Below, piece by piece: positions 7,855 to 37,020 of a stretch of DNA of 64,000 nucleotides (its first letter is position 1; the number at the start of each line of letters is the position of its first letter). The DNA is from Bdellovibrionales bacterium. Its GTDB lineage: Bacteria; Bdellovibrionota; Bdellovibrionia; Bdellovibrionales; UBA1609. Location of the stretch: the NCBI GenBank assembly GCA_965219095.1, contig CBDCMT010000001.1:32001-96000 (forward strand), written 5' to 3'. The notes under the pieces were generated by a model. That model searched no databases, had not been told where the DNA came from, and worked only from the letters and a program-made list of their open reading frames with translations. The translations under genes and the position numbers were made by a program.

Positions 7855-8925
7855 TCATAATTTTTCAGTAATTTTCTTTCCTATAAGAGGAGCAAGAGTG
7901 AATCCTGTGCAACTCCATCCAGCCGAAATAAGAAGATTTTTATATTTAGAATCATATTCTAAAATCCCTTGAGAATCTTTACTATAACTTTCAATAGCTC
8001 GTATTCCTCCTTCAAGGGTGGAGTTTTTCACCCAATTCAACCGATGACTGATTCGTTGTTTTGCTACATTGGCATCCCGAATGCTTAAATGTTCTAATGC
8101 TTTTTGTCGGCTATTGATTTGAGTTGCTTCAAAAAGATATCCACCCACGAATGATCCGTTCGGAAAAAAATGACCAAAAGTCCTTGAATTTTTATCAACA
8201 AATAAAGGGACTTTGGTTTGTCGATTCCTCCTAAAAAACCTGTTAACTTGAATAACTTGGGGAAAAATGTCCACCTTAGTTCCAAGAGTTTTTAATAAAT
8301 CATATGTCCATATGCCAGCAGTCAACACCAATTTTTCGCAGTTCAAAACCTCTCCTTGGCTAGTTTTAATTCCGGTAACTTTATTTTTTTTGGCCAAAAT
8401 TTCTAATACAGAAGTGTTAAGTTTTACATTGGCACCTCTTCTTTTAGAGTACCATACAAAAGCTTGTGTTGTGCTATAGGGACAAGCGTTTCCAGCACAG
8501 GGTTCATAAATGGCTACATCATCCTCATACCAGTAAAAATCAGGAAATTCTTTTTTACCTATAATTGGATCAATAATATGAAAATCCACTCCTGATGTTT
8601 TTAAAATAGAAAGATGTTCTGAAAAAGACCTAAGCTTATGACGTTTTAAAAAATACAAAGACCCTGTTCTATTAAAATGACATGGAAAGCCTACTTTTTC
8701 ATCAAAATTTACATAGAAAGGGACACTCTTGGCTGCATTTTTTGTTGTTTCTGGATTTTTATGCATAACTCTTATAAGAGATCCCCATGATCCTGTTGCA
8801 CCGCAACCAAAGCTAGATTTCTTCTCAATAAGCAAACAGTTGTAAATTCCTTTTTCAGTTAAATGATAAAGCACTGATGTTCCTACAGCTCCAGCTCCGA
8901 TGATAATGATATCGAAGTGTTTCAT
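7855..8925 (-). CDS. FAD-dependent oxidoreductase, DAO/glycine oxidase family (Spb39/Tri27-like role inferred)
   Basis: IIIGAGAVG dinucleotide motif, GATGSWGSLIR and C-terminal GFTLAPLIG. ATGA overlap couples it to the upstream cupin-MetRS gene. Confidence 0.88.
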   Translation of the reverse strand: MKHFDIIIIGAGAVGTSVLYHLTEKGIYNCLLIEKKSSFGCGATGSWGSLIRVMHKNPETTKNAAKSVPFYVNFDEKVGFPCHFNRTGSLYFLKRHKLRSFSEHLSILKTSGVDFHIIDPIIGKKEFPDFYWYEDDVAIYEPCAGNACPYSTTQAFVWYSKRRGANVKLNTSVLEILAKKNKVTGIKTSQGEVLNCEKLVLTAGIWTYDLLKTLGTKVDIFPQVIQVNRFFRRNRQTKVPLFVDKNSRTFGHFFPNGSFVGGYLFEATQINSRQKALEHLSIRDANVAKQRISHRLNWVKNSTLEGGIRAIESYSKDSQGILEYDSKYKNLLISAGWSCTGFTLAPLIGKKITEKL

Positions 8926-10883
8926 TTTTTTAAAAACTTTCGAAATTGTTCTAAGCTTATGGAAAAATCAGATATTTTAAGATCGCAAAGGTGTCGAGTG
9001 ACCTTATTGGTTTCAACCACTCCTGCCGAGGTTTCTTCACACATCAGATGGGTGGAAAGTTTTTTTCCAAAATTTATCATAATAGGTGTGATGAGTTTTG
9101 CCCATTCTTGCAGTGCTGATAAACATAAACTAAGATTTTCCTTTGTATGTCTATGGCGATTTCTGAACCAGAATTTTCTTAAAAAATTCAGATAATAAGA
9201 CAATTGATCCGAAGCACCATTAAGAGAAAAATTTCTAAGTTCATAGAATTCTTGAATTTTCCAAGACTGTTGGGTGGATTCAAAGAGAAATTTTTCTTGG
9301 TAGCCCTTGAGTTTTGGCATAACAGCCCATTCATACCTGTACCTTTTTAGTGTATGATCTAATGAGTTAAAAAAACTCTCCCAGCGATCAACTAACTCGG
9401 TTTTAAGAAAATTTTCAAAATCAGAGAGTTGAAAGTTTGTTTCCTCATCTTCAGATCGAGTCAGGCACAAATAAAAACGCAGTGAATCTGAAGGAACAAA
9501 TTCTAAAATATCATGAGCCCAAATAGCATGGTTCCGACTCGTTGAAAACTTCTTTTCATTCAGTTGATAGAAATAATTGGAAAGAAAGCCTTTAGGTGGT
9601 CTTATGTTAGTGTCAATTTTATGCATTAAAGCTGGGAGTAGTAACCCGTAAAAAAAACTATTATCAAAACCAAAAGACTGAACTACTTCATTTTGATGAG
9701 ATTTCCAAAATTGAACTCCTTTTTGTCCCTTTCTTTTTGACAGGTAAAGTAAACTTGCAGCCATTTCTATCCATTCATAAATAATTTGATTTTTTTGACC
9801 TGGTACTGGAATACCCCAATTGGAAAATTGGCTAGCAGAGACATCGGGAAGTCCTAGTTTGAAATAGTTCAGATAAAACTCTCTTAGTTTTGGATGCATT
9901 TCAATGTGTTTCAGAGTTTCTTCTAAAAATGAGGAAGATTGAGAGAGGGGAAAATAATACCGATTCACTTCCTTTATGGAGATTTTACCATCGCCAAAGT
10001 TTGATTTTGGATCAATAAGATCAATACAGTCATTATAACAGCCACAGTTTTCACATCCATTTCCTCCAGTAGGGGTTTTGCAATGAGGACAAGTGCCTGA
10101 GATTTGGGAGCCGTAAATAAACTTTTGTGTGCTTTCGCAAAAAACTGTAGGAGCTTTTCTTAAGATTAAAAAACCTCCGTCTATCAACTTTTTAAAAATG
10201 TCTTGAACAAATTTTGTATAATCATTATTTTGGAAAGGGCTTAACCATTCATCATATGAACAGCCAAAAGCTTTCAGAGACTGTATAATAAGAGGTCTAT
10301 ATCTCTTGACGACCTCTTCATTTGTTAAATTGAGTTGAAGGGCTTGAGAGGGAACATAAGACTGATTGTCATCAGTTCCAATGGACACAGATACGTTTGC
10401 ATTTTGTATAGAAAGGTAGCGAGCAAAAACGTCCGCAGATAAATAGGGCCCAGACAAATGGCCTAGATGCAAGGGGCCGTTGGGGGTTGGAGGGGCTGGA
10501 ATGATCAAAGTAAAAGTAGGTTTTTTGACTCGGTAAGGAAGCACCCAGGCTATAGAGTGAAATTCCAATGGCTCAGAATGAGAAAGGTTTCTTAGAGTAT
10601 GCTCAGAATGAGGGGGAATGAAAATTGCATCTCCTGTGCTTACTTCTTGTATTTCTTCTTCAATTTGCATTACTCCACTTCCTTTTATGATAAGAAAAAT
10701 TTCCTGATCTTCATGGCAATGAGATGCTGTCGAATGGTATGGAGGAATTTGACAAAGAGTTAGTGCAAAAGGTGTTCGAAGCTCTTTGTCTCCTAAAGGT
10801 AAAGCTGTTTTACAAAAAATATTATAGGCTTTTTCCCAAGTGTGAGATCCTATCTTTTTAATCTGCACAAGTTGACTCTCCAA
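8922..10883 (-). CDS. Cupin / methionyl-tRNA-synthetase-like didomain protein (putative hydrazine synthetase)
   Basis: N-terminal cupin with HCHEDQE...GDAIFIPP..EH metal ligands. Class I aaRS core PPTPNGPLHLGHLSGPYLSAD, zinc knuckle CPHC..CENC, and KFSTS in place of KMSKS. Confidence 0.9.
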   Translation of the reverse strand: MESQLVQIKKIGSHTWEKAYNIFCKTALPLGDKELRTPFALTLCQIPPYHSTASHCHEDQEIFLIIKGSGVMQIEEEIQEVSTGDAIFIPPHSEHTLRNLSHSEPLEFHSIAWVLPYRVKKPTFTLIIPAPPTPNGPLHLGHLSGPYLSADVFARYLSIQNANVSVSIGTDDNQSYVPSQALQLNLTNEEVVKRYRPLIIQSLKAFGCSYDEWLSPFQNNDYTKFVQDIFKKLIDGGFLILRKAPTVFCESTQKFIYGSQISGTCPHCKTPTGGNGCENCGCYNDCIDLIDPKSNFGDGKISIKEVNRYYFPLSQSSSFLEETLKHIEMHPKLREFYLNYFKLGLPDVSASQFSNWGIPVPGQKNQIIYEWIEMAASLLYLSKRKGQKGVQFWKSHQNEVVQSFGFDNSFFYGLLLPALMHKIDTNIRPPKGFLSNYFYQLNEKKFSTSRNHAIWAHDILEFVPSDSLRFYLCLTRSEDEETNFQLSDFENFLKTELVDRWESFFNSLDHTLKRYRYEWAVMPKLKGYQEKFLFESTQQSWKIQEFYELRNFSLNGASDQLSYYLNFLRKFWFRNRHRHTKENLSLCLSALQEWAKLITPIMINFGKKLSTHLMCEETSAGVVETNKVTRHLCDLKISDFSISLEQFRKFLKK

Positions 10884-10943
10884 AACTTTTACAATAATAA
10901 AAAATAACGTTATAAACTAGTACAGACGGGAGTACATTTTGCT

Positions 10944-11516
10944 GTGAGTCAAAGAGCCTTTACTAATAAAATTCCATCACTTGAAACTCCACGTCTTTTC
11001 TTAAGGGAACTTCAAATAAAAGACAGCAGATCTTATTTTCAACTGTGTTCAAATCCAAGTGTCATGAAAGCTTACGGAGTCGCTCATCACAAAAATGAAA
11101 ACGAAACGAAAAAAATCATCCAATTCCATAAAAAACAATTTCAAAACAAAGTGGCTATTCGTTGGGGAATTTTTTATAAAGAAAATAACAGCCTTATTGG
11201 CGATGTAGGATATTGGCGTTTTGATTGGAATCGCAATCGTGGTGAAATGGGTGCAAAACTAATACCTTGTTTCTTCCAAAAAGGTCTTATGACTGAAGCT
11301 TTGAGAAAGCTTATTACCTTTGGATTTGAAAAACTTAGACTGCATAGTATAGAAGGAGCAGCATTTCCACAGAATCCAGCCTCTAAAAAGCTTCTAGAAA
11401 AGCTAGGATTTCGACAAGAAGGTTATAGAAAAGAATTCTCTTATTCTCCTTACGAAAAAAAATATCTCGATAGTTACCTTTACTCGCTTCTTGAAAGTGA
11501 CTGGAAGGATATGTAA
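10944..11516 (+). CDS. GNAT family N-acetyltransferase (RimJ/RimL type)
   Basis: LETPRLFLR, QKGLMTEAL and NPASKKLLEKLGFRQEG motifs. Confidence 0.9.
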   Translation: MSQRAFTNKIPSLETPRLFLRELQIKDSRSYFQLCSNPSVMKAYGVAHHKNENETKKIIQFHKKQFQNKVAIRWGIFYKENNSLIGDVGYWRFDWNRNRGEMGAKLIPCFFQKGLMTEALRKLITFGFEKLRLHSIEGAAFPQNPASKKLLEKLGFRQEGYRKEFSYSPYEKKYLDSYLYSLLESDWKDM

Positions 11517-11517
11517 A

Positions 11518-12765
11518 ATGCATAAGGTCTGTTGCATTGTGGATGCCTATTCTTCTGGAAATTTCCTTGCACCTGAATTTAAAAAACTAGGCTATCCATC
11601 AATTCATGTTCAAACTACGAAAGAAATTTTTTCAGTACTGCAACCAAGCTTTCGCAAAAATGATTTTTCAGAAAATATTATTTTTGATGGAAATTTCGAA
11701 AACCTAAGGGAACGTCTTAGAAAATATCCCATAGCTTGTCTTCTGCCAGGAACAGAAACAGGCGTAGAACTGGCTGATCGACTCAGTGAAACCCTTAATC
11801 TTCCCACAAATGGGACCAGAAAAAGTCAAGCCCGTCGCAATAAATTTGAAATGTCTGAAGCTGTTAAAACTTTCGGCTTAGAGGTTGCAAAACAAAAAAT
11901 GTCTTGTGATGTCGAAAATTTGATTCATTGGTATAAAACAAGTAGCTTAAAAAAAGTTGTAATAAAGCCTATTGCAAGTGCTGGATCAGAGGATGTTAAA
12001 ATCTGTCATTCGGAAAGTGATATAAGTAAAGCATTCAGTCGAATGATGGGAAAAGTTAATAAGCTTGGTCATAAAAATGAAGCCCTTGTAGTACAAGAGT
12101 TTCTAGAAGGGGAGGAATATTTTATCAATTCTGTATCATGCCAGGGAAAACATCATATTACGGATATTTGGAAGCACCAAAAACGATCTTTAAATGGATG
12201 CGATTTTGTTTATGACTGTGCTGAACTGTGTTCCAGACAAGGAGAGGTTGAAGATAAAATCAGTGACTATCTTTTGAAAGTTTTAGAAGCTCTTGAAGTT
12301 CGGTTTGGACCAGCCCATTCTGAGATTATGATGACCTCAACAGGGCCGAAGCTCATTGAAATGGGAGCACGGATTCAGGGAATGTCTGTTCCAAGTTTAA
12401 ACCAAGAATGTATTGGATACGGACCCATTGACTTAACTGCAGAAGCTTATTTAAATTCAAGGAAATTTCAAGAAACAGCAAAAAACTCTTATCAACTCAA
12501 AAAGTATGCTTTAAGAGTGAATCTTATTTCTTATAAAAAAGGGATTCTTAAAAGTTTACCTGGTGAACATTTATTAAGAAAACTTGAAACTTTTTTCTTT
12601 TTAAGATGGATTAAAACTCCAGGTATGAAGATACCCAGAACTATTAATTATTTTACCGTCCCGGGCTTTGTTATACTCGTTCATGAAAACAAAGAAAAAC
12701 TCTATGAAGACTACACTAGGATACAGGAAATGGAAAGCCATAATGATATTTTAATGTATGAATGA
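11518..12765 (+). CDS. ATP-grasp domain protein, L-amino-acid-ligase type (DdaF/NikS/BacD-like)
   Basis: IVDAYSSG start, ARRNKFEM, VVIKPIASAGSEDV, VQEFLEGEEY, GPAHSE and LIEMGAR. ATG lies 1 nt after the GNAT stop. Confidence 0.9.
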   Translation: MHKVCCIVDAYSSGNFLAPEFKKLGYPSIHVQTTKEIFSVLQPSFRKNDFSENIIFDGNFENLRERLRKYPIACLLPGTETGVELADRLSETLNLPTNGTRKSQARRNKFEMSEAVKTFGLEVAKQKMSCDVENLIHWYKTSSLKKVVIKPIASAGSEDVKICHSESDISKAFSRMMGKVNKLGHKNEALVVQEFLEGEEYFINSVSCQGKHHITDIWKHQKRSLNGCDFVYDCAELCSRQGEVEDKISDYLLKVLEALEVRFGPAHSEIMMTSTGPKLIEMGARIQGMSVPSLNQECIGYGPIDLTAEAYLNSRKFQETAKNSYQLKKYALRVNLISYKKGILKSLPGEHLLRKLETFFFLRWIKTPGMKIPRTINYFTVPGFVILVHENKEKLYEDYTRIQEMESHNDILMYE

Positions 12766-12812
12766 GAGAAATGCACTGGATACTTGCAGTTAATACTTGC
12801 AGTTAGGTGACA

Positions 12813-12923
12813 TATAGTGCTTCCGTTTAGGTTTTCAGTTTCCTAAGATAGAGAAGTTATCAGTTATCAAAGTTTCTAATTTAGATCTGTGTTTTCGTAT
12901 TCCTCTAAAAAATTGACTTAAAC
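12813..12923 (-). mobile_element. IS630-family element, 3' end (rest at 22584..23621)
   Basis: IR TATAGTGCTTCCGTTTAGGTTTT. Encodes SLSQFFRGIRKHRSKLETLITDNF, which joins in frame to ...FKGSLS at 22584. Confidence 0.88.
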
Positions 12924-14137
12924 TGTAATAGTCGCGACTTAATCTGACACGTCTCGAAATGTCAAAGAGATGAAAAGAGGTTACCCTTTTAAATAAACAA
13001 TACCACCCCAAAGGGTGGAGAAAGGATAACAAAAATGACATATCAAGAAAGAATTATAAAATCAAAAGTAGGTCTTTTGCAATTAGCAGAAGAGTTAGGC
13101 AATGTATCTCAAGCTTGTAAGGTGATGGGCTTTTCAAGAGATACATTTTATCGTTACAAGACACTCAAAGAGGAAGGAGGTTTAGAATCATTAAGAGAGC
13201 AAAGTCGTAGAAAGCCTAATTTAAAAAACAGAGTTGATCAAACGACAGAAGAGGCTTGTTTAAGGATCGCTATAGAACTTCCTGCCTATGGACAGTTGAG
13301 AGCGTCCAATGAGTTAAGGAAAAAAGGAATTTTTATTTCTCCTGCAGGAGTTAGAGGGGTCTGGCTGAGAAATAATTTAGAGACTTTCAAAAAGCGTTTG
13401 AAAGCTTTAGAAAAGAAGTCTGCAGAGGAAGGCTTGGTTTTCACAGAGGAGCAGTTACAAGCCCTAGAGAAGAAGAAACAAGAGGATTTAGAGTGCGGAG
13501 AGGTAGAGACAGCTCATCCTGGTTATTTAGGCTCACAGGACACTTTTTATGTGGGAACTATGAAAGGTGTAGGACGTCTTTATCAACAAACCTTTGTGGA
13601 CACTTACTCAAAAATTGCTTTCTGTAAGCTCTATAAAACGAAAACACCTATTACAGCAGCTGACCTTCTCAATGATAGAGTGTTTCCTTTTTTTGAAGAC
13701 CATGATGTGCCCCTGCTTCGTATGTTAACAGATAGGGGTACAGAGTTCTGTGGAGTTCAAGATCGTCACGATTATGAGCTTTATTTGGCTATCAATGATA
13801 TAGAGCACACAAAAACAAAGGCAAGACATCCTCAAACCAATGGCATCTGTGAAAGATTTCATAGAACAATTTTAGAGGAGTTTTATCAAGTGGAGTTTAG
13901 AAAAAAAGTGTACAAAAGCATAGAAGAGTTGCAGTCTAACCTTGACTTGTGGCTTGTGAAATATAATGAAAGGAGAACTCATCAGGGAAAAATGTGTTGT
14001 GGTCGAACACCTATGGAAACTTTCCTTGACGGAAAACAAAAAGTAAGGCAAAAGATGATTGAACAGAACGCAAACTGACAGACAGTTTTTTATCAACCCA
14101 GAAAGGGTAACTGTCAGATCATATAACGTCTATTACA
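12924..14137 (+). mobile_element. IS481-family element, copy 2 (1214 bp)
   Basis: TGTAATAGTCGC...GTCTATTACA termini. Confidence 0.95.
13035..14078 (+). CDS. IS481-family transposase
   Basis: 347 aa with intact DDE motifs. Confidence 0.95.
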   Translation: MTYQERIIKSKVGLLQLAEELGNVSQACKVMGFSRDTFYRYKTLKEEGGLESLREQSRRKPNLKNRVDQTTEEACLRIAIELPAYGQLRASNELRKKGIFISPAGVRGVWLRNNLETFKKRLKALEKKSAEEGLVFTEEQLQALEKKKQEDLECGEVETAHPGYLGSQDTFYVGTMKGVGRLYQQTFVDTYSKIAFCKLYKTKTPITAADLLNDRVFPFFEDHDVPLLRMLTDRGTEFCGVQDRHDYELYLAINDIEHTKTKARHPQTNGICERFHRTILEEFYQVEFRKKVYKSIEELQSNLDLWLVKYNERRTHQGKMCCGRTPMETFLDGKQKVRQKMIEQNAN

Positions 14138-14310
14138 GTTAAAAGGAGAGTTTCATCTTGAGCATTCTCGCCATCGTAGCCCACAAAACTTTGTCATCAA
14201 TCTTTTAGGTACTCTCATCTCCTATTGTTTAAAACCTAAAAAACCCTCCATTCAACTTAAAACTCAAGAACAGGGGCCTCTGAGCAATATATAAAAGTCG
14301 AAACTCGGGT
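14138..14310 (+). mobile_element. IS982-family 3' fragment
   Basis: Translates LKGEFHLEHSRHRSPQNFVINLL...KPKKPSI and ends AACTCGGGT (IS982-type ACCC terminus). Confidence 0.75.
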
Positions 14311-14517
14311 TAATAGGTATAATCCCAGTCAACATCTGGTTTGTTGTGGTGGTTCATACCCAATTCTAATTGGTCCCAATCATTATCAGAAAATCTTAAA
14401 ACTTTAGCATATTCATCAAGATTTTTTGATGTGAAATATTCACACTCAGTTTTTACATTATGATGATGTCCATATGAACCACAAAACGTATCAAACCATT
14501 TATTGTAAGGTTTAGTA

Positions 14518-14591
14518 TATAGTGCTTCCGTTTAGGTTTTCAGTTTTTTTCTCTAGAGAATCGACCGGAAAATCTAAGCGTATTCACTATA
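14518..14591. mobile_element. 74-bp IS630-derived MITE
   Basis: Ends TATAGTGCTTCCGTTTAGGTTTTC / GAAAATCTAAGCGTATTCACTATA, with TA on both flanks. Confidence 0.8.
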
Positions 14592-14750
14592 TACTTGTCT
14601 TACCTTCAAATCCTGCATTTCCTTATTAGTGAGATCCCATGCAAGATGGTAACTTTGCCCTTCAGGATTAATTTTAATTTTGTCGAGATTGATACTGACT
14701 AGAGTTTTTTCTTCCACCTCAATAAATTGTCTTGTTTCACTATAAACTAA

Positions 14751-16267
14751 GCCTCCTCAAAAGAATCTGTGGGTTCCCGGAGGTTCTGGCAGTTTTCCAA
14801 GGTTATGATATAAGGCGATTTTTATAGCTTTAGAGGTTCTAAAGCCGTAAGATTTTCTCATAGTGAGTTTTACTTTGTTGTTTAAACCCTCTACAATCCC
14901 TGAGGAGAAGGCTTTTTTAGCCTTGAAGTAATTAAGAATAAGTAGCTTATGTCTTCGTATGGTTTTTGCTTCTCTTTTCATAGGTTCAATTTTTGAAAGC
15001 ATGACTCGTCTCGTCCAACTGTCTATAAATTTACCAGCCCAAGTTGGTGAAACATAGGTCCATAACTGTCGGAAGTCTTCTTTTAAAAAATAACAGCGGA
15101 TACTTTTTAAATTGTACTGTATTAAATGCCTTAATTTTACTTTTTCATAAGATTTTAAATTTTCTGCATTTTTTAACAAGGGCCATCTAGCTTTTGTTAA
15201 AAGGGGTTCATACCCGTCTTCTTTCATTTTTTTGTGTTCTGAAGCTCTCACTTCGTCTAAAGCCTTATTGAGTCTTGCTACGATATGAAACCGATCTAAT
15301 ATGTGTAAAGCTCCACTTGCCCTCTCCTTTATGACTTTTAAATAAGGCTTCCACATATCAGACACACAAACCGTATATCTTTTGACTTCTCTCCTAGTAA
15401 ATCAAAGAATTTTCTAAAACTCTTTTCTGTTCGTTTCTCTCCTATCCACAACAAGCGTACACGGGTTTTGCTTATTTCATAGACTAAGGTGAGATACTGA
15501 TGGTTCTTTTTCCATTGTATTTCATCTACACCTATAGCTTGTATTCCCTTTAAAACCCTTTGTTTTAAACCATATTCTACGACCCATTCTACCGAAGCAT
15601 AGACCTGATTCCAACTGACATGAAACTTACAAGAAACCTCTTTCCAAGACAGGTGACGACACCAGTCTGCTAAATACTTCATGTAAAAGATCGTTAAACT
15701 CTTCTTACCATCGGCCCAAGGTAAATACTCAACTTTTACCCCACAGCAAGGACAATTAACTCTTCTTACAAAATAAACAAAAAACACCCTGTAACTTAAA
15801 ATAGGAAGGGATTCAAAGTCCCGTGATGATTTACTGCTGTCATACACTGAACAGGGCTTCTTACAAACACTACAAAAAGCTTGGCCATTTTTACGAGCCT
15901 TAATAGGAACATTAATTGACTTTCTATCTTTTGAAAAATAAATGTCTCCGTATACAAAAGACTTCCATCTTAAACAATCATTTAGTATAGTCTTCAAAAG
16001 CATCTCTTCCCTCCTTTTTTTTTTTGAATAACATTTTAAGGCATCTGGGAAGTAGGTGCTTCTTTTTTAAAATTTTAATGTAACACAGCAAATAAAAGCA
16101 AATAAAATGAATGTTTTTGAGTTCAATCGCCAAAGGCGATAGAGGCCAGTAAGGGCCTCAAAGAACTCAAAAATACAAGATAGGATGTCTTACTCTTACT
16201 TTGATTAATATGAGCCTTTTTGGGGGATTTCTAGCTACTTTTCACCCACAGATTCCCGGGAGGAGCC
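14751..16267 (-). mobile_element. ISL3-family element (1517 bp); transposase frameshifted (15338..16003 + 14757..15365)
   Basis: 8-bp TSD TAAACTAA on both sides. Zinc finger CSVC/CPCC, GVDE, SDMWKPY, DRFH and EGLNNK motifs. Frameshift near 15360. Confidence 0.93.
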
Positions 16268-17905: not shown

Positions 17906-17955
17906 GATGAAGATGAACTCGATCTGTTCTCAAGACCATAAGATAAAGATAAGCT

Positions 17956-18651: not shown

Positions 18652-20544
18652 CCTGAGTTTGCCCTTTCATTAAAAAAACACCTTCAGATCGAAAACAATG
18701 CAGTTTCATGTCTTTTTTCTTTAAGTTTATAATATGTCAGGTAATGTGCAATTATATAACTTGGAGAAAAAAGAGGGAGGGATTTTTTATGTTCATGGCT
18801 TGTCCTAAAAGAAAAGATGGAAATATTGTAGTTAGGCTGATTGTATCCTATAGAAAGGAGGGTAAACCTAAATCCAAAATAGTTAAAACTATCGGTCAAT
18901 CTAAAGATCCTAAAGCTGTAGAGCGGTATAAAAAGATAGCTAAAGAATTAATTGAAAAAGAAAAAAAGGGACTTGTTTCAATAGAGGGTGCTATTCGTAA
19001 TAAGATTACAGTAAATCTTTCAGATGTAGACAATGAAGAGCGTCGTAATAATGGCTTTAATGACATTCTAGGTTTTACTTACCAACAGTTGGGTTTTAAT
19101 GATCTCATCCAAGCAGGAAGAGATCCTAAAAAGCTCAATGCTATTTTAAAGAATCTAGTTTTGATGAGAGTTTTTGATCCATCAAGTAAATTAAAAAGTT
19201 CCTATTTACTTGAGGAGCATTTTGGTAAAAATATAACTCTCAAACAAATTTTAAATTTGATGGATCACATATCAGATCAGGAAGAAAACATTAGGGATAG
19301 AATTTCCCAAGTTATTCTTAATGGGGAAAAGAGCTTAGACATTGTCCTTTTTGATGTAACGACCTTGGCCTTTGAAAGTGTTGTCCCAACGGACTTATTA
19401 GATTTTGGTTACAGCAAAGATGGTAAACCTGGAGAGGTTCAAGTTGTTTTAGCTGTTTTATCGAATCAGAAGGGTTTGCCTATAAGTTATGAATTATTTG
19501 CTGGCAACACTTCAGAGTTTGAGACCTTTGAATCAATGATTAAGGGGGTTTCTAGGAAGTATAACCTTAGAAAGATAAGGGTTATAGCAGACCGAGGTTT
19601 GTTTTCCAATAATAATCTTGAAGCTTTAGAGGGGTTAAATTCAGAGGGAATCAAAGCTGAGTACATTGTTTCTTGTCCCTTAAAAAAACTTCCTAAATCT
19701 CTTAAGGACAGTATTTTGAATAAGAGTAATTACAAAGATGATGGTACAGAAGGCTCTAAAATCTTATACCATGAGGTTGAGTATAATAACCGACGAATTA
19801 TTATAAGTTACAGTGAGAAACGTGGGCGACATGATATAAAAAAAAGGGAACGTGCTGTAGAAAAGCTAAAGGAGTTAGAAAAAGATGGAAAGATTAAAAG
19901 TTCTAAGCTGATAAAAGGTGGAGGGAAAAATAAATATATACAAAAAGTTCGTGGGGACACAAAGATTGATTGGAAAAAAGTGGAGCAAGACGCCTTGTGG
20001 GATGGTCTATATGGAGTTTGTACAAATTTAAAATCAGAGTCTGTTCATGCCATTTGTGAGGCCCGCTACAATCTTTGGCGAATTGAAGAGCTGTTTCGGA
20101 TTAACAAACATAATTTAAAAATGCGACCCATATATCATAGAAAAACTCAAAGAATAAGATCACACATAGCTATTTGTTTTTTAGCTTATGTGGTTCTGAG
20201 AAGTACAGAAATAACTTTAAAAGAAGCAGGGGTGAATATTAGCTCCCAAGAGCTTATTGAGACTCTTAAGGATGTAGAGACTAATATTATTCGAAATAGA
20301 GTAAAAGTTCCCTCTAAAGCTTATGGCCTTCCTCGTAAGTTATCTGCAAAGGCTAAGAAAATTTATAAGCTCTTTGGAAAGGAGTTTCCTGAAAGAGCCT
20401 ATGAAATAACATAATTGTGAATGTTTATTGGAGAGCTTTTGGTATGTAGAAAAATGTAGTATGTCTTTTTCATTGGAACAGTGCATAAACCTAGTTATTT
20501 CAGGTACTTAAAGTAATAGCTAAATTTGAAAGGGCAAACTCAGG
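18652..20544 (+). mobile_element. IS1634-family element type A (1893 bp), no matching TSD
   Basis: Perfect 18-bp IR CCTGAGTTTGCCCTTTCA. Left flank is scpB; right flank is IS481 interior. Confidence 0.92.
18789..20414 (+). CDS. IS1634-family transposase
   Basis: FDVTTLAFES, GYSKDGK, IADRG, YNLWRIEELFR and MRPIYH motifs. Confidence 0.92.
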   Translation: MFMACPKRKDGNIVVRLIVSYRKEGKPKSKIVKTIGQSKDPKAVERYKKIAKELIEKEKKGLVSIEGAIRNKITVNLSDVDNEERRNNGFNDILGFTYQQLGFNDLIQAGRDPKKLNAILKNLVLMRVFDPSSKLKSSYLLEEHFGKNITLKQILNLMDHISDQEENIRDRISQVILNGEKSLDIVLFDVTTLAFESVVPTDLLDFGYSKDGKPGEVQVVLAVLSNQKGLPISYELFAGNTSEFETFESMIKGVSRKYNLRKIRVIADRGLFSNNNLEALEGLNSEGIKAEYIVSCPLKKLPKSLKDSILNKSNYKDDGTEGSKILYHEVEYNNRRIIISYSEKRGRHDIKKRERAVEKLKELEKDGKIKSSKLIKGGGKNKYIQKVRGDTKIDWKKVEQDALWDGLYGVCTNLKSESVHAICEARYNLWRIEELFRINKHNLKMRPIYHRKTQRIRSHIAICFLAYVVLRSTEITLKEAGVNISSQELIETLKDVETNIIRNRVKVPSKAYGLPRKLSAKAKKIYKLFGKEFPERAYEIT

Positions 20545-20890
20545 AGAGGGGTCTGGCTGAGAAATAATTTAGAGACTTTCAAAAAGCGTTTGAAAGCTTT
20601 AGAAAAGAAGTCTGCAGAGGAAGGCTTGGTTTTCACAGAGGAGCAGTTACAAGCCCTAGAGAAGAAGAAACAAGAGGATTTAGAGTGCGGAGAGGTAGAG
20701 ACAGCTCATCCTGGTTATTTAGGCTCACAGGACACTTTTTATGTGGGAACTATGAAAGGTGTAGGACGTCTTTATCAACAAACCTTTGTGGACACTTACT
20801 CAAAAATTGCTTTCTGTAAGCTCTATAAAACGAAAACTGAACTTCCCCTGTTTCTGCGGACAGTCAATTTTCTCTTAAAGTCTCCATAAA

Positions 20891-21196
20891 ATGGAGGTAA
20901 AAGAAAGAATGGAAAAAGTAAAACAGTACTCGGAAGAGTTTAAAAAGCAAGCCATTGAATTGGCAGAGGAAATAGATGCAAAGGAAGCCTCAGAGAAGCT
21001 AGGACTGAGAAATTTCCAAGTGATAAGCTCTTGGAAGCGTTTTCTAAAGCCTGAAGTAGAAAGACAAGCTTCCCATGACTTGGCTTCGGCATTGGAGGAA
21101 ATAAAGAGGTTAAAAAAGGAGCTGGTCTATGAGAGGCGGAGTGTAGGTATATTGAAAGAGGCAGCGGCTTTTTTTTCAAAGGAAATCCTGAAATGA
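20891..21196 (+). CDS. IS3-family transposase OrfA
   Basis: YSEEFKKQAI HTH and ILKEAAAFF terminus. ATGA overlap with OrfB. Confidence 0.88.
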   Translation: MEVKERMEKVKQYSEEFKKQAIELAEEIDAKEASEKLGLRNFQVISSWKRFLKPEVERQASHDLASALEEIKRLKKELVYERRSVGILKEAAAFFSKEILK

Positions 21197-22059
21197 GATT
21201 TAAGGCTATGTTTTATGTAAAAGAGAAAGGGCATCCAGTGCTTCGCATCTGCGAATTATTAAGAGGATCTCGTTCTGGTTTTTATAGTTTTTTAAAAACC
21301 AGGGGAAAGCTTGAAAAGGATAAAAATCTGGAGAAAAACATAGAATCTATTTTTAAAAAAAATAAAGGCTGTTATGGTTCCCCCAGGGTGTATAGGGAAT
21401 TAAAGCGTTGCGGAGTGAGTGCTGGAGAAAACAAAGTAGCTCGAATTATGAAACTAAAGAATCTCAGTGCCCGTCAGAAAAAACCCTATGTTCCTAGAAC
21501 AACAAAGAATAACCCTCTCATGATTAAGTCTCCTCGGTTGTTTAAGACAGGACAGAGCCAAGCAGGAAAAGAAAACCAGGTATGGTGTTCGGATTTAACC
21601 TATATTCCTTTTAGAGATAAATTTCTGTATTTGGTTGTATTTTTAGATGTCTATAATCGAGAGATTAAGTCTTGGAAGCTCTGTGAGAGCTTGGACGGGG
21701 TTCATTCAAAACAGGCTCTGAGAGCCGCAGTCCAATCTGTTTCTGGGAACTTAGAGGGCTTGATAATCCACTCGGATCAAGGGGTTCAATATTGTTGTGA
21801 AGGGTTTAGAAAAGAATTGAAATTCTTTGGCCTCAAGCAATCTATGTCTAGGAAAGGAAATTGTTATGATAATGCGTTTGTGGAGAGCTTTTTCCATACG
21901 TTGAAGGATGAACTGGAATACAAAGACTGTACAACAAAGGAAGAGTTGGAAAAAAAAATTGCAATTTACATGGATTGGTATAACAAGGTAAGAATGCATT
22001 CTTCCTTGAAATACATGAGCCCAAAAGAATTTAAACAAAGGAGGGCTTTAAGAACATAA
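21193..22059 (+). CDS. IS3-family transposase OrfB
   Basis: YGSPR, WCSDLTY, HSDQGVQY and GNCYDNAFVESFF motifs. Confidence 0.93.
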   Translation: MRFKAMFYVKEKGHPVLRICELLRGSRSGFYSFLKTRGKLEKDKNLEKNIESIFKKNKGCYGSPRVYRELKRCGVSAGENKVARIMKLKNLSARQKKPYVPRTTKNNPLMIKSPRLFKTGQSQAGKENQVWCSDLTYIPFRDKFLYLVVFLDVYNREIKSWKLCESLDGVHSKQALRAAVQSVSGNLEGLIIHSDQGVQYCCEGFRKELKFFGLKQSMSRKGNCYDNAFVESFFHTLKDELEYKDCTTKEELEKKIAIYMDWYNKVRMHSSLKYMSPKEFKQRRALRT

Positions 22060-22583
22060 AAACTGTCCACTTTTTTGGGGGAAGATCAAACACCTATTAC
22101 AGCAGCTGACCTTCTCAATGATAGAGTGTTTCCTTTTTTTGAAGACCATGATGTGCCCCTGCTTCGTATGTTAACAGATAGGGGTACAGAGTTCTGTGGA
22201 GTTCAAGATCATCACGATTATGAGCTTTATTTGGCTATCAATGATATAGAGCACACAAAAACAAAGGCAAGACATCCTCAAACCAATGGCATCTGTGAAA
22301 GATTTCATAGAACAATTTTAGAGGAGTTTTATCAAGTGGAGTTTAGAAAAAAAGTGTACAAAAGCATAGAAGAGTTGCAGTCTGACCTTGACTTGTGGCT
22401 TGTGAAATATAATGAAAGGAGAACTCATCAGGGAAAAATGTGTTGTGGTCGAACACCTATGGAAACTTTCCTTGACGGAAAACAAAAAGTAAGGCAAAAG
22501 ATGATTGAACAGAACGAAAACTGACAGACAGTTTTTTATCAACCCAGAAAGGGTAACTGTCAGATCATATAACGTCTATTACA

Positions 22584-23621
22584 CTTAAACTTCCCTTGAA
22601 ATCGTCATAGTTTTCATAATAGCGATTTGCTGTGACCTCTTTTTTCATAAACTTCCAAAGCCTTTCTATAGGATTTAAATTCGGTGAATACGGAGGAAGA
22701 TAAACAAGTTTTATATTCAACTCTTTCGCTAACTTCTTGACAGACTTCGATCTATTGTATCCGGCCCCATCTAAGATAAGATGAATCTCTTTTTCATCGG
22801 GATGCTTCTTGCGAAGATGATGGAGCATATCACATAGAAAAACTTCGTTAACTGTCTTATAACTCCTGACTACCGTCTTCAAACTATTGATCTCAATAGC
22901 TCCACAAACATTCACTCTTTTTCTCCAGCCTGAATTGGTCTTCACTTCAAACTTCTTACCCTCTCTTATCCAACCATATGAAATCGTAGGGCCCCACTCA
23001 GGATGTGTGGAATCAGCAAAGTAAACAGGACTGTCTTTCTTCTTAATTCTCTTGTATTTACGCACAAACTTTTTCTGCTCTTCTCTCTTTGCCTTACCTG
23101 GTATCGCTGTGGCTTTTTTATAAGAAAAACCAAGGCGATGGAGAAGATCAATTACACCACTTGTTAAAGTACGTAACACCAAAATTCTCCTCAATGAATT
23201 GGATGACAGACTGTGATGATGGAAAAATTCTTTTCTCTAATTCCTTTAAAAGCATTTTCTCCTCTTTCTTAGTTAAAAAGGACCTTTTAGGGTTGTAATT
23301 GTCGTTGATTAAACACTCTATCCCACCTTTGTTATAAGGATCTCTATAGGCTCTTATCGTGCCCTCATCAATGAAAAGAAAACGGGAAATATCTTTACAC
23401 AACTCACCTTTATCTAAATGGAGAATTGTCATAATCCTTTTTGCGTATTTAAGATTTTTCTCTAGAGATAGTTCATAGAGTAAATCTTTTCGCTCTTTTT
23501 TTGATAGAAACCCTGATATATGAAACTATTTTTAAAAATAAATGACTTTTTATCAAGGCCTTAGAACAAAAACTAGACCTCAACTCAAAAAAAAACGGAA
23601 AACCTAAGCGGAAGCACTATA
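22584..23621 (-). mobile_element. IS630-family element, main part; transposase frameshifted near 23170
   Basis: IR AAAACCTAAGCGGAAGCACTATA. YFAD, ILDGAGY and LPPYSPNLNPIERLW motifs. Confidence 0.9.
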
Positions 23622-23810
23622 TACTAATTGTATTTCAAAATCCACACACAGAGAGTGGGGTCTAGTTTTTGTTAAAATGTCTTGATAGCACAGAGTTCTA
23701 TGTAAACAATATCTTTTATGGGAACCTTGTTATCAAAAAAAGTGTAAGAGCTTTTATCAGCATGCTTCTTCCTAAAAAATTAATGTGTGGATTTTGAAGT
23801 GTAATCAGTA
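23622..23810. mobile_element. 189-bp MITE-like element with ~27-bp IRs
   Basis: TACTAATTGTATTTCAAAATCCACACA ... TGTGTGGATTTTGAAGTGTAATCAGTA, flanked by TA. A lone related end lies at 25096-25140. Confidence 0.7.
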
Positions 23811-23814
23811 TAAT

Positions 23815-24942
23815 TTATCTAAGTTTCAGAAAATCAATTTCATATTCAATTTTCTCTGAATGAATCATTTTTTTAACTAAATCTCCAATCAATGGAATAA
23901 ATTTAAAAGCGTGACCTGAACCTCCGGTAGCAAGAACTACATTTTTAAATTCTGGATGAAAATCTATTAAAAAATTTTCATCTTTTGTTAGGGTATAAAA
24001 ACACATTTTCCAGTTTAATGGTTTTTTATGCACATGAGGCAGAAACCTATCAATGACTTGAGTGATGGGTTTTAGCTCTTTTTCTTTGTACTCATATTTT
24101 TTTTCTAAAGCTCCTTCAATCTGATCAGAGGGAGCATAGTTGGAAATCTTAAGGCCTGATTGATCGACATCAGGGAATCCATAAATAAACTCTCTGTTTT
24201 CTATAACAGCAAAGCAGGGCATTTTTTCCTTATAAGAATGTTTACTTGCAAACCAAAACTGAGGAGCACGTGTGATTTTAAATATCATAGGAAGAGGGGA
24301 TAATAAATCTGAACTCCAAGGCCCTGGTGATAGAACAAGATAATTCGCCCAATATTCACTCTTATCAGTTACAACATGGACCTCTGAGCCGTGGTTTTCC
24401 CACGAAGATACTCTCTCATTTGTTTTAAATATTGCACCTTTTTTACGAGCTAAAGATAAAAATGTTTCAATAGTTAGATCTGATCTTATAATACCTGCTT
24501 TTTTTTCAAATTGACCCATAAAGCCCATGGGCATTAGAAATTGGGGAAAACTGTTTTTAAGTTGCTTTCGGCTTAAGGTTTCATTTTCAATGTTATAAGA
24601 GTCTGCATAAGAAAAAATTGTCTCTGAAATTTGTTCTTTTTCGGGACTTAAAACTAAAAACCCTGTCTCCGTTAATAGATCTTGGTTGAAGTTTCTTTGG
24701 GTATTAAGTTTTTTCCAAAGCTCATAGGAGTGTTTTGCAAGAGGGATGTATCTTGGGTCTTCAAAGTAAGTTTGACGGAAAAGCCTTGTCTTTCCGCTTG
24801 AGCTTCCTTTCTGGTGTGGAGGAGAAAAGCGATCAATTCCAATGACATTTAATCCACTGAGAGTCAAATAATAACAAATAGCAGACCCCATTCCTCCATA
24901 ACCTACAACTATGACATCACTTTTTAAAATTTTTTTTGTCAT
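23815..24942 (-). CDS. Monomeric sarcosine oxidase / N-methyltryptophan oxidase family flavoenzyme (SolA/NikD/PIPOX-like)
   Basis: VVGYGGMGSA, GSSSGKTRLFRQTYFE, covalent-flavin Cys in MCFYT, and SGHAFKF. Confidence 0.9.
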   Translation of the reverse strand: MTKKILKSDVIVVGYGGMGSAICYYLTLSGLNVIGIDRFSPPHQKGSSSGKTRLFRQTYFEDPRYIPLAKHSYELWKKLNTQRNFNQDLLTETGFLVLSPEKEQISETIFSYADSYNIENETLSRKQLKNSFPQFLMPMGFMGQFEKKAGIIRSDLTIETFLSLARKKGAIFKTNERVSSWENHGSEVHVVTDKSEYWANYLVLSPGPWSSDLLSPLPMIFKITRAPQFWFASKHSYKEKMPCFAVIENREFIYGFPDVDQSGLKISNYAPSDQIEGALEKKYEYKEKELKPITQVIDRFLPHVHKKPLNWKMCFYTLTKDENFLIDFHPEFKNVVLATGGSGHAFKFIPLIGDLVKKMIHSEKIEYEIDFLKLR

Positions 24943-25095
24943 CTACAACTCCTAATCTTTCTAAAACAAGGGGAGTACGATCATAAAATCTTTCATGAAT
25001 GATCAAAAATCAATCCGCCTTTCATTAAAATAACATCAATACCCCTAAAGTCTTTAAAAACTTTTCCTCTATAACAGATGTCTGTACTGTAAATA
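24917..25095 (-). pseudogene. 3' remnant of a possible SnoaL/NTF2-like gene overlapping the oxidase start
   Basis: Removing a 4-bp TCAT duplication gives FRGIDVILMKGGLIFDHERFYD..., resembling NTF2-fold C-termini. The 5' part is lost at the element end at 25096. Confidence 0.4.
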
Positions 25096-25178
25096 TACTA
25101 ACTGCACTTCAAAATCCACACATTAATTTTTTAGGAAGAATCATACACATGGAAGTTGTAGGTCAAGAGACTGCTCAA

Positions 25179-25308
25179 TTCTTTCTTGATATGTCATTTT
25201 TGTTATCCTTTCTCCACCCTTTGGGGTGGTATTGTTTATTTAAAAGGGTAACCTCTTTTCATCTCTTTGACATTTCGAGACGTGTCAGATCAAGTCACAA
25301 CTATCACA
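25179..25308 (-). mobile_element. IS481 left-end fragment (slightly diverged)
   Basis: Matches 3770-3899 apart from a few substitutions in the IR. Confidence 0.85.
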
Positions 25309-25345
25309 GCTTATTACTAAAAGTGACTCCTCTCGGAAATCTGTG

Positions 25346-25377
25346 AGAGCCTGTAAATTTACAGGCTCTTTTTTTTT
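25346..25377. terminator. Perfect palindrome followed by a T-run; possible intrinsic terminator or IS5-end-derived hairpin
   Basis: AGAGCCTGTAAATTTACAGGCTCT plus a T-tract, downstream of the MATE gene. Confidence 0.5.
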
Positions 25378-25443
25378 CCCTCTAATCCATCTTTGTCCAC
25401 TTTGTACAAAGTTGTCTTGCTTCTTCATATGTCATAAAACCTC

Positions 25444-26841
25444 CTAAACAATTGCTTTATTTTTAATCATCTTTAACTGGTGAGTAATTTTCATCCAAGA
25501 ACATAAAATCATAACAGCAATGCTTATAACCCCCACACACAAACCAATCCAAAGACCTGTCAATCTCAGATGAAAACTAAAGCAAAGTATCAATGCCAAT
25601 AACAGTCCTATGGGATAATACCCTATAGCACAAGCTACAGAAGCCGTCTTTGTATGCCCTAACCCTCTTAAAGCCCCGGTAGCGCATGCTTGTACAGCAT
25701 CAAAAACTTGAAACACAGCCCCCCAAAATATAATTTTAGATCCCATACGAATCACATTAAGATCATAAGTGAACCAACTTAAAATCATTTCTGGAAAATT
25801 AAACAAAACAACTGCGATGATTGACATTATAAAAATTCCAATGATGATGGAGATCCAGCCGGCTTGTTTAGCATGCTCTCTATCGCCGGTTCCAACAAAG
25901 TACCCCACTCTATAGGCTGCAGCACTTGAAAGTCCCACTGGAAACATGTAAGTAAAAGAAACAATCATGATGACAACATGGTGGGCTGCTGTTTCATAAG
26001 GGTTAAGCCAGGCGGCAAACACAGTGGTAAGAGAAAAAATACCCACTTCAAAAACTTGCTGCCATCCTGCTGGAATTCCTAATCTTAATACATTATGTGC
26101 AAATGTTCGATCTATAGAAAAAGGGTTTAAAAGTTTTTTTAAATTAAAATTTCTATTTGTTTTAAAATAATTGAATGTCAGCATAAACATGGCTAAACAA
26201 AGACTTCCTCTAGAAAAGTTTGTAGCTACGGCTGCACCATAAACACCCCAGGATGGAAAGCCAAATTCACCAAAAATCAAGGCTCTATTGGCAAAATAAT
26301 TTATAACATTAGCAACCAACACCATCACTAATATTGGTTTTGTCACTTTTCGACTTTGCCAATACCTTTGCATACCTGTAAAAAAGAGTAAAAAAGGTAA
26401 TCCTGTACCTATAATGGCAAGGTATATTTCAGCATTTTCTAAAAGAGATGGGTCTGATTTAAACACCCAAAGATTTTTAGAAATGAAAAGAATCAAAGGT
26501 GAGAAAATGATAGACAGATAAAAACAGAACTTTAAACTTTGATACAATATACTTTCAAGAGTTTTTGAATTTCCTGCTCCATAGGCTTGAGATGTAATGG
26601 TATCCAGGGCTGACAAAATCCCCATCGCAAAAACCGCTATCACCCAAAAAATAGATCGAGCCAATCCAGCACTAGCTAGAGAATTTGTATCAATACGACC
26701 TAACATCACTGTATCTACAAGGCCCATTAACATAAAACTTACTTGAGCCAAAACTATAGGAAAAGCAAACCGAATGGTGTTTTTTAATTCGTCTCTAAAA
26801 GAATGTGATTTCAAAAACATACTCTTCATCGTACTTTTCAT
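25444..26841 (-). CDS. MATE family efflux transporter (NorM-like)
   Basis: About 12 TM helices; VDTVMLG, SQAYGAG, GVYGAAVAT, RLGIPAG and GALRGLGHT motifs. Confidence 0.95.
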   Translation of the reverse strand: MKSTMKSMFLKSHSFRDELKNTIRFAFPIVLAQVSFMLMGLVDTVMLGRIDTNSLASAGLARSIFWVIAVFAMGILSALDTITSQAYGAGNSKTLESILYQSLKFCFYLSIIFSPLILFISKNLWVFKSDPSLLENAEIYLAIIGTGLPFLLFFTGMQRYWQSRKVTKPILVMVLVANVINYFANRALIFGEFGFPSWGVYGAAVATNFSRGSLCLAMFMLTFNYFKTNRNFNLKKLLNPFSIDRTFAHNVLRLGIPAGWQQVFEVGIFSLTTVFAAWLNPYETAAHHVVIMIVSFTYMFPVGLSSAAAYRVGYFVGTGDREHAKQAGWISIIIGIFIMSIIAVVLFNFPEMILSWFTYDLNVIRMGSKIIFWGAVFQVFDAVQACATGALRGLGHTKTASVACAIGYYPIGLLLALILCFSFHLRLTGLWIGLCVGVISIAVMILCSWMKITHQLKMIKNKAIV

Positions 26842-28178
26842 TAAGTCAACAAATCTCGATTAAGTTCTGGAAGATTTTTATTTCCAGAATGAAGGGGAAT
26901 ATATTTAGAAAGAATATGGTCGGAAAGTCTTCCAAGACAACTTAAACTCGCAAATCCCGGCCCCTGATTGAGTCCCGCCATCATGGGTAAATGAAGCGAT
27001 GGCTGCAATCCTGAAATTGCAAGATTTTCATCAATTCTTTTTTCAACATTCTGAGCACTAAGCTCTTTTAATTTTGTTTGACGGAGTATTGATTCTTTTG
27101 CATTTTCACTTAAAAGTTTTTCTACAAAATCCATGTGATTAAAACCAGTTGTAATAACAACTAAGTCATAAATTCGTTTTTCCCGATCTTTATCATATTC
27201 AATGTCAAGTACAATTTGGTTAAGAGAGTCAATGCCAATGGATCGACAAGTTCCTGGAATGATTTCCACATTTGATAAACGATCCAAATCTCTTTTAGTA
27301 AGAAAAGAGAAAACTCCCTTATCAGTGCGGTTGATAAAATTCCTCCTATCTTTTTCGGTTAATTGGAGCCAGTTTCCTTGGAAAGGATCAGTGTAGATAT
27401 GGTTTTCTGCGTAGCTTTCGCCTCGTGTATAAGTCATTGCATTAGGAGAGATGATATCGACATGAAAGCTTGGATCGAGCTGTCCTAATGTTACAGCAAT
27501 AGCTGCTGAACTTTCACCAGAACCCACTAAAGCGGCTTGAATGTTTTTTTCTTTTGTGTAATCTTCGTGGGTTTTCCAAAAGTTTTCTGTTTTTAATATT
27601 CTAGGATGGTGCGGAATACAAAAGGGGAGATGAGTTGATCCTGGACCTGTGATCACTAAACTGTCAGAAAAGTGATCAAAAAAACGTCCTTCAGAACTTT
27701 CGGCTTGAACCCTCCACCTTCCATTATCAATATCTATGGATTTAACTGCTGCATTTATATACTGAACTTCACTTTGAACTTTATGAAACACCCATTCCAT
27801 ATACTCAGCCCACATGTGATGGGAGGGAGCAGGTCGTCCTCGGTCGATCCAATCTGCATATTGATGTTTCCCAATAAAAAAACTCTGCCAAGAAAATTGC
27901 TGCATTAATGCATCCACCATGCGATTTTCAGAATCACCCCAACAAAAAGAATAATAAGGAAATCCTAAATCTTTTTCAGGAGATGTTCCCAAGGGAAGTT
28001 GACCATTTGTGTACCCAGAACCATTTCGCCAATGATGGCCTACCTCTTCTTTCTCAAAAAGGATAAGAGAAGGGACAGGAAAACCAACTTTTTTGAGAAC
28101 AAATGCTTTTGTAATGACGGCAAGTGCCTTAGGCCCCGCTCCAATAAGAGCTAAAGTTTTTTGTTCTTTCTTAGCCAT
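26841..28178 (-). CDS. Lysine/ornithine N-monooxygenase (SidA/IucD/PvdA family, MbtG-like)
   Basis: LIGAGPKAL (FAD), LGTSPEKDLGFPY, WIDRGRPAP, VGSGESSA (NADPH) and MbtG-type C-terminus QGPGFASLSCLGRLSDHIL. TAATG overlap with the MATE gene. Confidence 0.9.
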   Translation of the reverse strand: MAKKEQKTLALIGAGPKALAVITKAFVLKKVGFPVPSLILFEKEEVGHHWRNGSGYTNGQLPLGTSPEKDLGFPYYSFCWGDSENRMVDALMQQFSWQSFFIGKHQYADWIDRGRPAPSHHMWAEYMEWVFHKVQSEVQYINAAVKSIDIDNGRWRVQAESSEGRFFDHFSDSLVITGPGSTHLPFCIPHHPRILKTENFWKTHEDYTKEKNIQAALVGSGESSAAIAVTLGQLDPSFHVDIISPNAMTYTRGESYAENHIYTDPFQGNWLQLTEKDRRNFINRTDKGVFSFLTKRDLDRLSNVEIIPGTCRSIGIDSLNQIVLDIEYDKDREKRIYDLVVITTGFNHMDFVEKLLSENAKESILRQTKLKELSAQNVEKRIDENLAISGLQPSLHLPMMAGLNQGPGFASLSCLGRLSDHILSKYIPLHSGNKNLPELNRDLLT

Positions 28179-33626: not shown

Positions 33627-33845
33627 GCCTAACTCCTTATTATTTAAACTTGAGCCTCTTTAAATTCAAAGGTGACAAAAATTGTTAAACACTTGTGACA
33701 AAAATTGTCACACACTTTCTTCAATTTTTTTTGCTAAATTAAAAATTAAGTCACCAGTTTGAGGGAGGATCTCCGTTACTAAAGGGCAAATTGAGGATTA
33801 TAACACTTGACTTCAAAAGAACTATTATGATAAAATACAATCCTT

Positions 33846-36800: not shown

Positions 36801-36978
36801 TTCTCAAGACAACCATAAGAAACTTCTTTTAGAGATCATTCATGACATGAAGGCTTTAAATGAATCTTCTAGAATTATTATGGCTCCATCACGAAATTCT
36901 TTAGGGGCTTATGGTTACGTACATGAAGGAAAAGTAGATATTGCTCCAATCAAACTATACGAAGAGCCTGTAAATTAA
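33846..36978 (+). CDS. ~1000-aa secreted hypothetical protein, copy 1; leader disconnected by a T8 tract (long ORF 33943..36978)
   Basis: Leader matches 59525 but has A12/T8 instead of A9/T7. Body is colinear with 59998..62457. Carries a 60-bp in-frame duplication at ~36635-36729. Confidence 0.8.
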
Positions 36979-37020
36979 ATTGTGTAACTGATTTTTTTAA
37001 AAAATTTTTCTGAAATGAAC

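Follow-up and report, generated by a model that had tools for sequence, protein, structure and literature searches.

A putative carrier-protein-free pathway for N–N bond formation, scattered by insertion sequences, in a Bdellovibrionales genome

Do two blocks of biosynthetic genes that lie 11 kb apart across a field of insertion sequence (IS) elements belong to one pathway that makes a nitrogen–nitrogen (N–N) bond, and if so, is this pathway still whole? The question is raised by a 64,000-nucleotide stretch of DNA from a Bdellovibrionales bacterium (GCA_965219095.1, contig CBDCMT010000001.1, positions 32,001 to 96,000; hereafter the window), in which an earlier note, made from the sequence alone, had proposed a seven-gene hydrazine cluster. 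Here, we report that the two blocks are one cluster, their linkage across genomes being far beyond chance, that the cupin/MetRS-like protein encoded at 8922..10883 very probably forms the N–N bond, and that the cluster, completed by a displaced decarboxylase gene, probably encodes an eight-gene, carrier-protein-free pathway to an exported N–N small molecule. Open reading frame (ORF), domain, and profile searches found all seven ORFs of the note, full length and of the families it named; its count was amended, since the core is eight genes, with a pyridoxal phosphate (PLP) decarboxylase added, plus an optional SnoaL-like gene. The features are as follows.

7855..8925, minus strand: DAO-family FAD oxidase, 356 aa (PF01266, 2e-39).
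8922..10883, minus strand: putative didomain hydrazine synthetase (cupin/MetRS-like), 653 aa when read from TTG (pocket code APDQWMNY).
10944..11516, plus strand: RimJ/RimL-type GNAT acyltransferase, 190 aa (PF13302, 3e-29).
11491..12765, plus strand: ATP-grasp amide ligase, 424 aa (PRK07206, 431 bits; cut-off 302).
12766..23814, no strand: IS-rich gap where relatives carry the PLP decarboxylase gene.
23815..24942, minus strand: monomeric sarcosine oxidase (MSOX)/N-methyltryptophan oxidase-family flavoenzyme, 375 aa (PRK11259, 344 bits; cut-off 257).
About 24950..25435, minus strand: broken SnoaL-like gene (tblastn and repeat scan).
25444..26841, minus strand: MATE exporter, 465 aa (TIGR00797, 253 bits; cut-off 147).
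26841..28178, minus strand: predicted lysine N6-monooxygenase (NbtG/MbtG type), 445 aa (PF13434, 2e-15).
G000:C2:331740-333206 (same genome, outside the window), minus strand: PLP decarboxylase, 488 aa, intact with its PLP lysine, the only copy in the genome.

The eight core ORFs amount to 10,212 bp, align with their homologues over essentially the whole length, and have intact catalytic motifs. The GC content of the cluster is 34–38%, against 34% for the genome, and a scan for promoters and terminators stayed at chance level (16 against 16.8, and 4 against 3.4). Among the 120 RecA matches listed, 13 bear an organism label, and 12 of these are assigned to Bdellovibrionales or families within it, in support of a host of probable Bdellovibrionales type.

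Identity of the hydrazine synthetase

The synthetase carries a Cupin_2 domain (residues 43–111) and a tRNA-synt_1g domain (129–505), with the motifs H55-x-H57-x3-E61...H95, HLGH (139–142) and KFSTS (445–449); homologues suggest that its start may be a GTG five codons into the 653-aa ORF. The closest solved relative by sequence is PyrN-C (203 bits, against 172 bits for the top MetRS), and the structural model (predicted local distance difference test score 89) matches the PyrN-C fold with a template-modelling score of 0.89–0.91 and a root-mean-square deviation of 2.5–3.0 Å, compared with 4.3–7.2 Å for the MetRS entries listed. Residues H55/H57/E61/H95 correspond to H50/H52/E56/H90 of PyrN, i.e., the cupin zinc site with its catalytic glutamate is intact, and E56 of PyrN is essential (PMC8664883). 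All four of these residues are kept in 118 of the 120 homologues listed, which are the best 120 of 2,839. At the hydroxylamine-contact positions of PyrN (N143, Q/N184, E284, E286, D420, N421, L424), a hand-read alignment gives four identities out of seven (N135, E278, D407, and N408 in the synthetase), with Y176, G276, and F411 differing.

Housekeeping MetG was rejected as an identity. The synthetase scores under every metG cut-off (253 against 336 for TIGR00398) and has KFSTS instead of KMSKS, a separate metG is encoded at C2:401.8 kb, and a quick tree of 43 rows separates the six rows of MetG from the 37 of synthetases with an SH-aLRT of 99; two rows of this tree have long branches, and plasmid-borne TPDQWMNH enzymes stand in place of Spb40, Apy9, and FuzG. 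The phylogeny and the pocket inspection that the earlier note had proposed both place the protein outside MetG, in line with its assignment as a hydrazine synthetase. No didomain homologue was found in 40 relatives.

For the substrate pocket, we used the eight positions that PMC12376268 cites from Matsuda et al. The code is APDQWMNY, which is shared by 86 of the 120 homologues, and MetG reads [AG]LDGWAIH at the same columns. The mapping of the columns is checked by the homologues themselves, because the same columns return the published glycine code, TPDQWMNH, for 20 of the 120. Membership in the glycine/hydrazinoacetate subtype (Spb40, AzsN) was considered and rejected: the code matches TPDQWMNH at six of eight positions. 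A pocket of glycine size in which Ala replaces Thr and Tyr replaces His points to Ala, Ser, or Gly as the likely substrate. APDQWMNY may be listed in the code tables of the PyrN-C paper or in two 2024 ChemBioChem papers of Matsuda.

Conservation of the cluster across genomes

The claim that the blocks on either side of the gap form one cluster was examined by synteny, as the note had suggested. An alignment-based scan with only the synthetase as query brought up twelve homologous genome loci (a single-sequence scan gave none), and the metagenome loci are four short contigs. Of the 12 genome loci, 10 have the N-hydroxylase no more than 10 kb from the synthetase; the two misses are contigs of 2.5 and 7 kb. 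The whole eight-gene set is present in half of them (L011, L016, L017, L018, L021, L022); L011 has exactly the order and orientation of the window, with a 488-aa gene at the position of the gap, and L016 and L017 show the right-hand block with SnoaL. By their labels, five loci come from Bdellovibrionota, three from Planctomycetota (two of them Uabimicrobium), and one each from Pseudomonadota, Deltaproteobacteria, Cyanobacteria, and Bacteroidota. Searching the other way, among 400 genomes from the phylum of the host, the monooxygenase is matched at E ≤ 1e-30 in 18, and a didomain synthetase lies within 10 kb of it in 17 of these 18, the other having cupin-only neighbours; five loci of this search repeat those of the synthetase-based set. 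The full or nearly full long cluster type is seen in 12 distinct genomes (L019 across two contigs; L054 and L057 added). The proposal of a single cluster is thereby borne out, and the eight genes most likely form one pathway, as judged from their conserved linkage. Planctomycete sequences appear nearby in the quick tree (support 83), and this nearness together with the patchy distribution would fit lateral transfer.

A shorter hydrazine cluster type, made up of synthetase, oxidase, and monooxygenase, was also observed in 10 of the 400 phylum genomes (L060–L069). Its synthetase is often only 560–610 aa long with the same APDQWMNY code, and it also carries a 210-aa protein without a Pfam match and often a methyltransferase, as in the two close loci scanned. 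L058 and L059, from one genome, have a monooxygenase adjoining a stand-alone cupin, with no MetRS-like gene detected in the flanks.

State of the cluster in this genome

High-copy repeats make up 82% of the gap (12766–23814, 11 kb) and 36% of the window as a whole. The gap holds pieces of IS481, ISL3, IS1634, IS3, and IS630, a 247-aa hypothetical gene, and a truncated scpB with 90% identity to a copy on contig C1. The 488-aa gene which relatives carry here is a group II PLP decarboxylase (PF00282), present in 9 of the 12 loci, on another contig in two further genomes, and without a match in one. Its subfamily occurs in 10 of the 400 phylum genomes: eight are those with the closest monooxygenases, one (G218) has a partial cluster, and G290 has the decarboxylase alone within the 12 kb retrieved; none of the 10 short-type genomes has it. 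Neither tblastn nor blastn found a remnant of it in the gap, where only a 12-nt match follows the ATP-grasp stop.

In the host genome, the decarboxylase gene is preceded by a 192-nt ATP-grasp remnant that contains a stop codon and shares 86% identity with the 3′ end of the ATP-grasp gene of the window; beyond it lie IS66 and IS630. An assembly artefact was considered as the origin of this arrangement; contigs of runs X1 and X2, which may be the assembly's own source, show both the ATP-grasp end of the window and the diverged remnant leading into the decarboxylase. The SnoaL-like gene sits between MATE and MSOX in L016, L017, and L021. What is left of it in the window is the C-terminal third in two frames (tblastn 1e-11 and 8e-5) with a frameshift, and a weak N-terminal trace of 13 residues (E 0.014), with IS scars between and a repeat at 25093–25315. 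Since the decarboxylase is displaced and SnoaL is broken, the gap is a rearrangement with gene loss rather than a simple insertion; the note had spoken of a cluster hidden by IS insertion, of which the IS-rich gap stands and the clean insertion does not. IS activity would have broken the cluster apart and either relocated or replaced the decarboxylase, yet a full-length copy of every one of the eight genes persists.

Is the pathway then a recent relic here, real in relatives but split, decaying, and silent? We consider this a serious alternative, though somewhat less probable than not: the decarboxylase is gone from the locus, SnoaL is broken, truncated duplicates are numerous in the window, IS scars lie inside the N-hydroxylase–MATE–MSOX operon, and none of 27 same-family genomes matches the monooxygenase or the decarboxylase. 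On the other hand, the eight ORFs are full length with their catalytic residues in place, and relatives too have the genes in shuffled order, so that a split cluster could still work. A frameshift and a stop are seen in the SnoaL and spare ATP-grasp pieces, in contrast to the eight end-to-end ORFs, which hints at purifying selection, a comparison that leaves the loss of SnoaL undated. For the source strain, an active pathway appears about evenly balanced against an inactive one.

Several further points weigh against an eight-gene pathway to an exported product. The decarboxylase gene is about 270 kb from the cluster of the window and lacks a native promoter context, and, because the remnant beside it is only 86% identical, it stems from a diverged second copy of the segment; the window itself is rich in truncated 90% duplicates. 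In G290, the 12 kb retrieved contain the decarboxylase and no other gene of the set. The gene set is variable, with no MSOX in the flanks of L014 and, at L012, L014, and L020, an extra adenylation enzyme and no RimL-type GNAT in the sequence retrieved; these variants suggest a family of related products. The genomes in which the genes co-occur are mostly from one family, hence non-independent. Finally, APDQWMNY is a common pocket code for which the searchable literature, closed supplements being outside reach, holds no characterised substrate.

Side observations concern the surroundings of these loci. The decarboxylase region (G000:C2:331740-333415, L027:9740-11415) lies among IS66, IS630, ISL3, and IS1634-like elements, and its neighbourhood includes a serine-recombinase-like ORF beside tRNA-Met. 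Diverged segment duplicates are numerous among the IS elements: in the window, 17968–18651, 39805–42019, 49436–50112, and 58315–59352 are pieces of scpB, arginine decarboxylase, Tyr/Trp tRNA synthetase, and FabMG, each 90–93% identical to another genome site. A dispersed repeat of about 32 bp (36964–36996, 62443–62475) has more than 100 genome-wide matches, one of them just downstream of the decarboxylase. A hypothetical gene family without a Pfam match (236–1011 aa) occurs at 1–2649, 33660–37316, and 51375–62794, with repeats of 80–97% identity within the window and at C2:81–95 kb. A 996-aa Ig-repeat protein with a weak match to a Bdellovibrio MIDAS adhesin (4179–7169) and a repeat beta-propeller protein (28752–29813) both have paralogues elsewhere in the genome.

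Proposed pathway

The monooxygenase would first make N6-hydroxy-lysine. Its top PDB match is 4D7E, ‘L-Lys monooxygenase’ (295 bits over residues 7–424), which we take to be NbtG, and the enzyme is presumably of the mycobactin/nocobactin type; the family is clear, the lysine substrate is predicted, and identity to the monooxygenases of the Bacillus and Mesorhizobium hydrazine clusters is only about 20%. The MetRS-like domain would then adenylate Ala, Ser, or Gly, as the pocket suggests, and form the O-aminoacyl ester, which the zinc cupin, having the residues for it, would rearrange to Lys-NH-NH-amino acid. N6-hydroxylation, O-aminoacylation, and cupin rearrangement are established chemistry (10.1101/2025.08.22.671884).

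The DAO-family oxidase, a candidate C–N cleaving enzyme of the Spb39/Apy10 type, would cut one C–N bond beside the N–N bond, on either side. Its ORF overlaps the synthetase stop by 4 nt, it directly follows the synthetase in most homologous loci at 37–50% identity, and it is 27–30% identical to the oxidases of hydrazine clusters from Bacillus. Of the two precedents, Spb39 cleaves on the lysine side and Apy10 on the amino-acid side (PMC11705231). If the oxidase here were Apy10-like, the lysine backbone would be kept, giving N6-amino-lysine and, after decarboxylation, an acylated hydrazino-pentylamine. That outcome strikes us as less likely than not: Apy10 is a precedent which comes with an Ala-using synthetase (PMC11705231), and the cluster has two flavin oxidases, but the regiochemistry here could be that of Spb39 or that of Apy10. 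The decarboxylase adds to both sides. Group II PLP decarboxylases need a free α-amino acid, for which the lysine head is the obvious candidate; the enzyme is, however, equally distant (27–30%) from aromatic, 2,4-diaminobutyrate (DABA), and lysine decarboxylases, and could act on a free amino acid. It may be drawn in our scheme as trimming the lysine head or as supplying an amine unit; a precedent for the latter is the E-64 cluster, whose decarboxylase seems to take a free amino acid as its substrate (PMC12568646).

The ATP-grasp ligase would acylate the hydrazine or the amine, in the manner of FuzC, which converts hydrazine to hydrazide in fuscazine (PMC13149037). Its top PDB match is an L-amino acid ligase (30VH, 225 bits), and DdaF dapdiamide synthase was rejected as its identity (NF041595, 270 bits against a cut-off of 840). 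The GNAT, with homologues at 41–48% identity in 8 of the 12 loci, may cap or protect, and MATE would export the product. The MSOX-family enzyme passes its family cut-off, has MSOX as its top PDB match (204 bits), and shares R53, R56, C314, H344, and K347 with 8 of 8 cluster homologues; we assume that these include the flavinylation Cys and the carboxylate-binding Arg/Lys. Because the sarcosine oxidase residues are retained, it should oxidise an N-substituted amino acid, and a hydrazino acid would most likely give a hydrazone. The order of these downstream steps is tentative, and we think it improbable that all of it is right.

That the locus instead holds two unrelated blocks, one an additional MetRS next to a GNAT and the other an N-hydroxylase of siderophore type with an exporter, might be argued from the 11-kb separation and from the mycobactin/nocobactin type and low identity of the monooxygenase, but is largely refuted by the contiguity of the blocks in other genomes and by the metG scores and pocket of the synthetase, and we give it very little credence.

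Comparison with known systems

The N-hydroxylase, didomain synthetase, and FAD oxidase are shared with Spb38/39/40 (s56-p1), Tri26/27/28 (triacsin), AzsL/M/N (azaserine), and PyrM/PyrN (pyrazomycin), as are the cupin H-H-E-H, HLGH, and KFST motifs and the PyrN-C fold. The pocket differs, known cassettes having TPDQWMNH (Gly) or SFVQALNR (Glu), and the synthetase has one zinc knuckle, whereas PyrN has two. The set in the window has no carrier protein or nonribosomal peptide synthetase and has in addition the MSOX-like oxidase, the PLP decarboxylase, and MATE.

The closest characterised pathway is fuscazine (fuz) of Microbispora fusca, likewise a carrier-free cassette with ATP-grasp ligation to a hydrazide (PMC13149037). 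It uses Arg, encodes its cupin and MetRS in separate genes, and also has two ATP-grasps, an Fe/α-ketoglutarate hydroxylase, and a tRNA deacylase; the seven enzymes listed for it include no decarboxylase, MSOX, or GNAT. A fuscazine-type cluster was rejected for the window, where the two ATP-grasps, the Fe/α-ketoglutarate hydroxylase, the tRNA deacylase, and the split cupin were not found. Actinopyridazinone (apy), compared by description only, also has a small-amino-acid synthetase (Ala) and an oxidase able to keep the hydroxylamine-derived chain; it uses a DABA hydroxylase, unlike the window. Dapdiamide DdaF and the fungal E-64 clusters share the ATP-grasp amide ligase logic, and E-64 pairs ATP-grasp with a PLP decarboxylase, but they have no N–N chemistry, and the ligase of the window is far under the DdaF cut-off.

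A prediction of the cassette, ATP-grasp neighbours included, dates from 2010 (PMC2922099), and hydrazine synthetases outside actinobacteria have been characterised from Bacillus, Pseudomonas, Microcystis, Mesorhizobium, Ralstonia, and Corallococcus (10.1101/2025.08.22.671884; PMC11705231). Their number is estimated at more than 1,200. In the open literature, including PMC13755311, PMC13061610, and PMC13274452, with subscription papers and closed supplements outside the search, we found neither a characterised cluster of this gene composition nor one from Bdellovibrionota, in agreement with the note, which had not recognised the combination.

Significance

The N–N core chemistry is already established; the combination of finishing enzymes is not a characterised one, and the MSOX-like enzyme and PLP decarboxylase are tailoring enzymes absent from the characterised hydrazine clusters compared. 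The literature searched holds no report of hydrazine-to-hydrazone oxidation by the sarcosine-oxidase family. As a compact, carrier-free set of eight genes, the pathway could be synthesised and expressed whole, and intact copies exist in at least 12 genomes, among them two complete Uabimicrobium chromosomes. Uabimicrobium engulfs cells. Bdellovibrionota prey on bacteria (PMC8067016). One may speculate, as a long shot, that this is a conserved, active pathway of predatory and engulfing bacteria, whose product would be a hydrazone or hydrazide exported against prey or competitors, with the MSOX-type enzyme performing carrier-free hydrazine-to-hydrazone oxidation, and that selection has kept the eight genes through their scattering by IS elements over three sites. 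A Bdellovibrionota natural product, if true, would bear on the use of chemistry by these little-studied bacteria.

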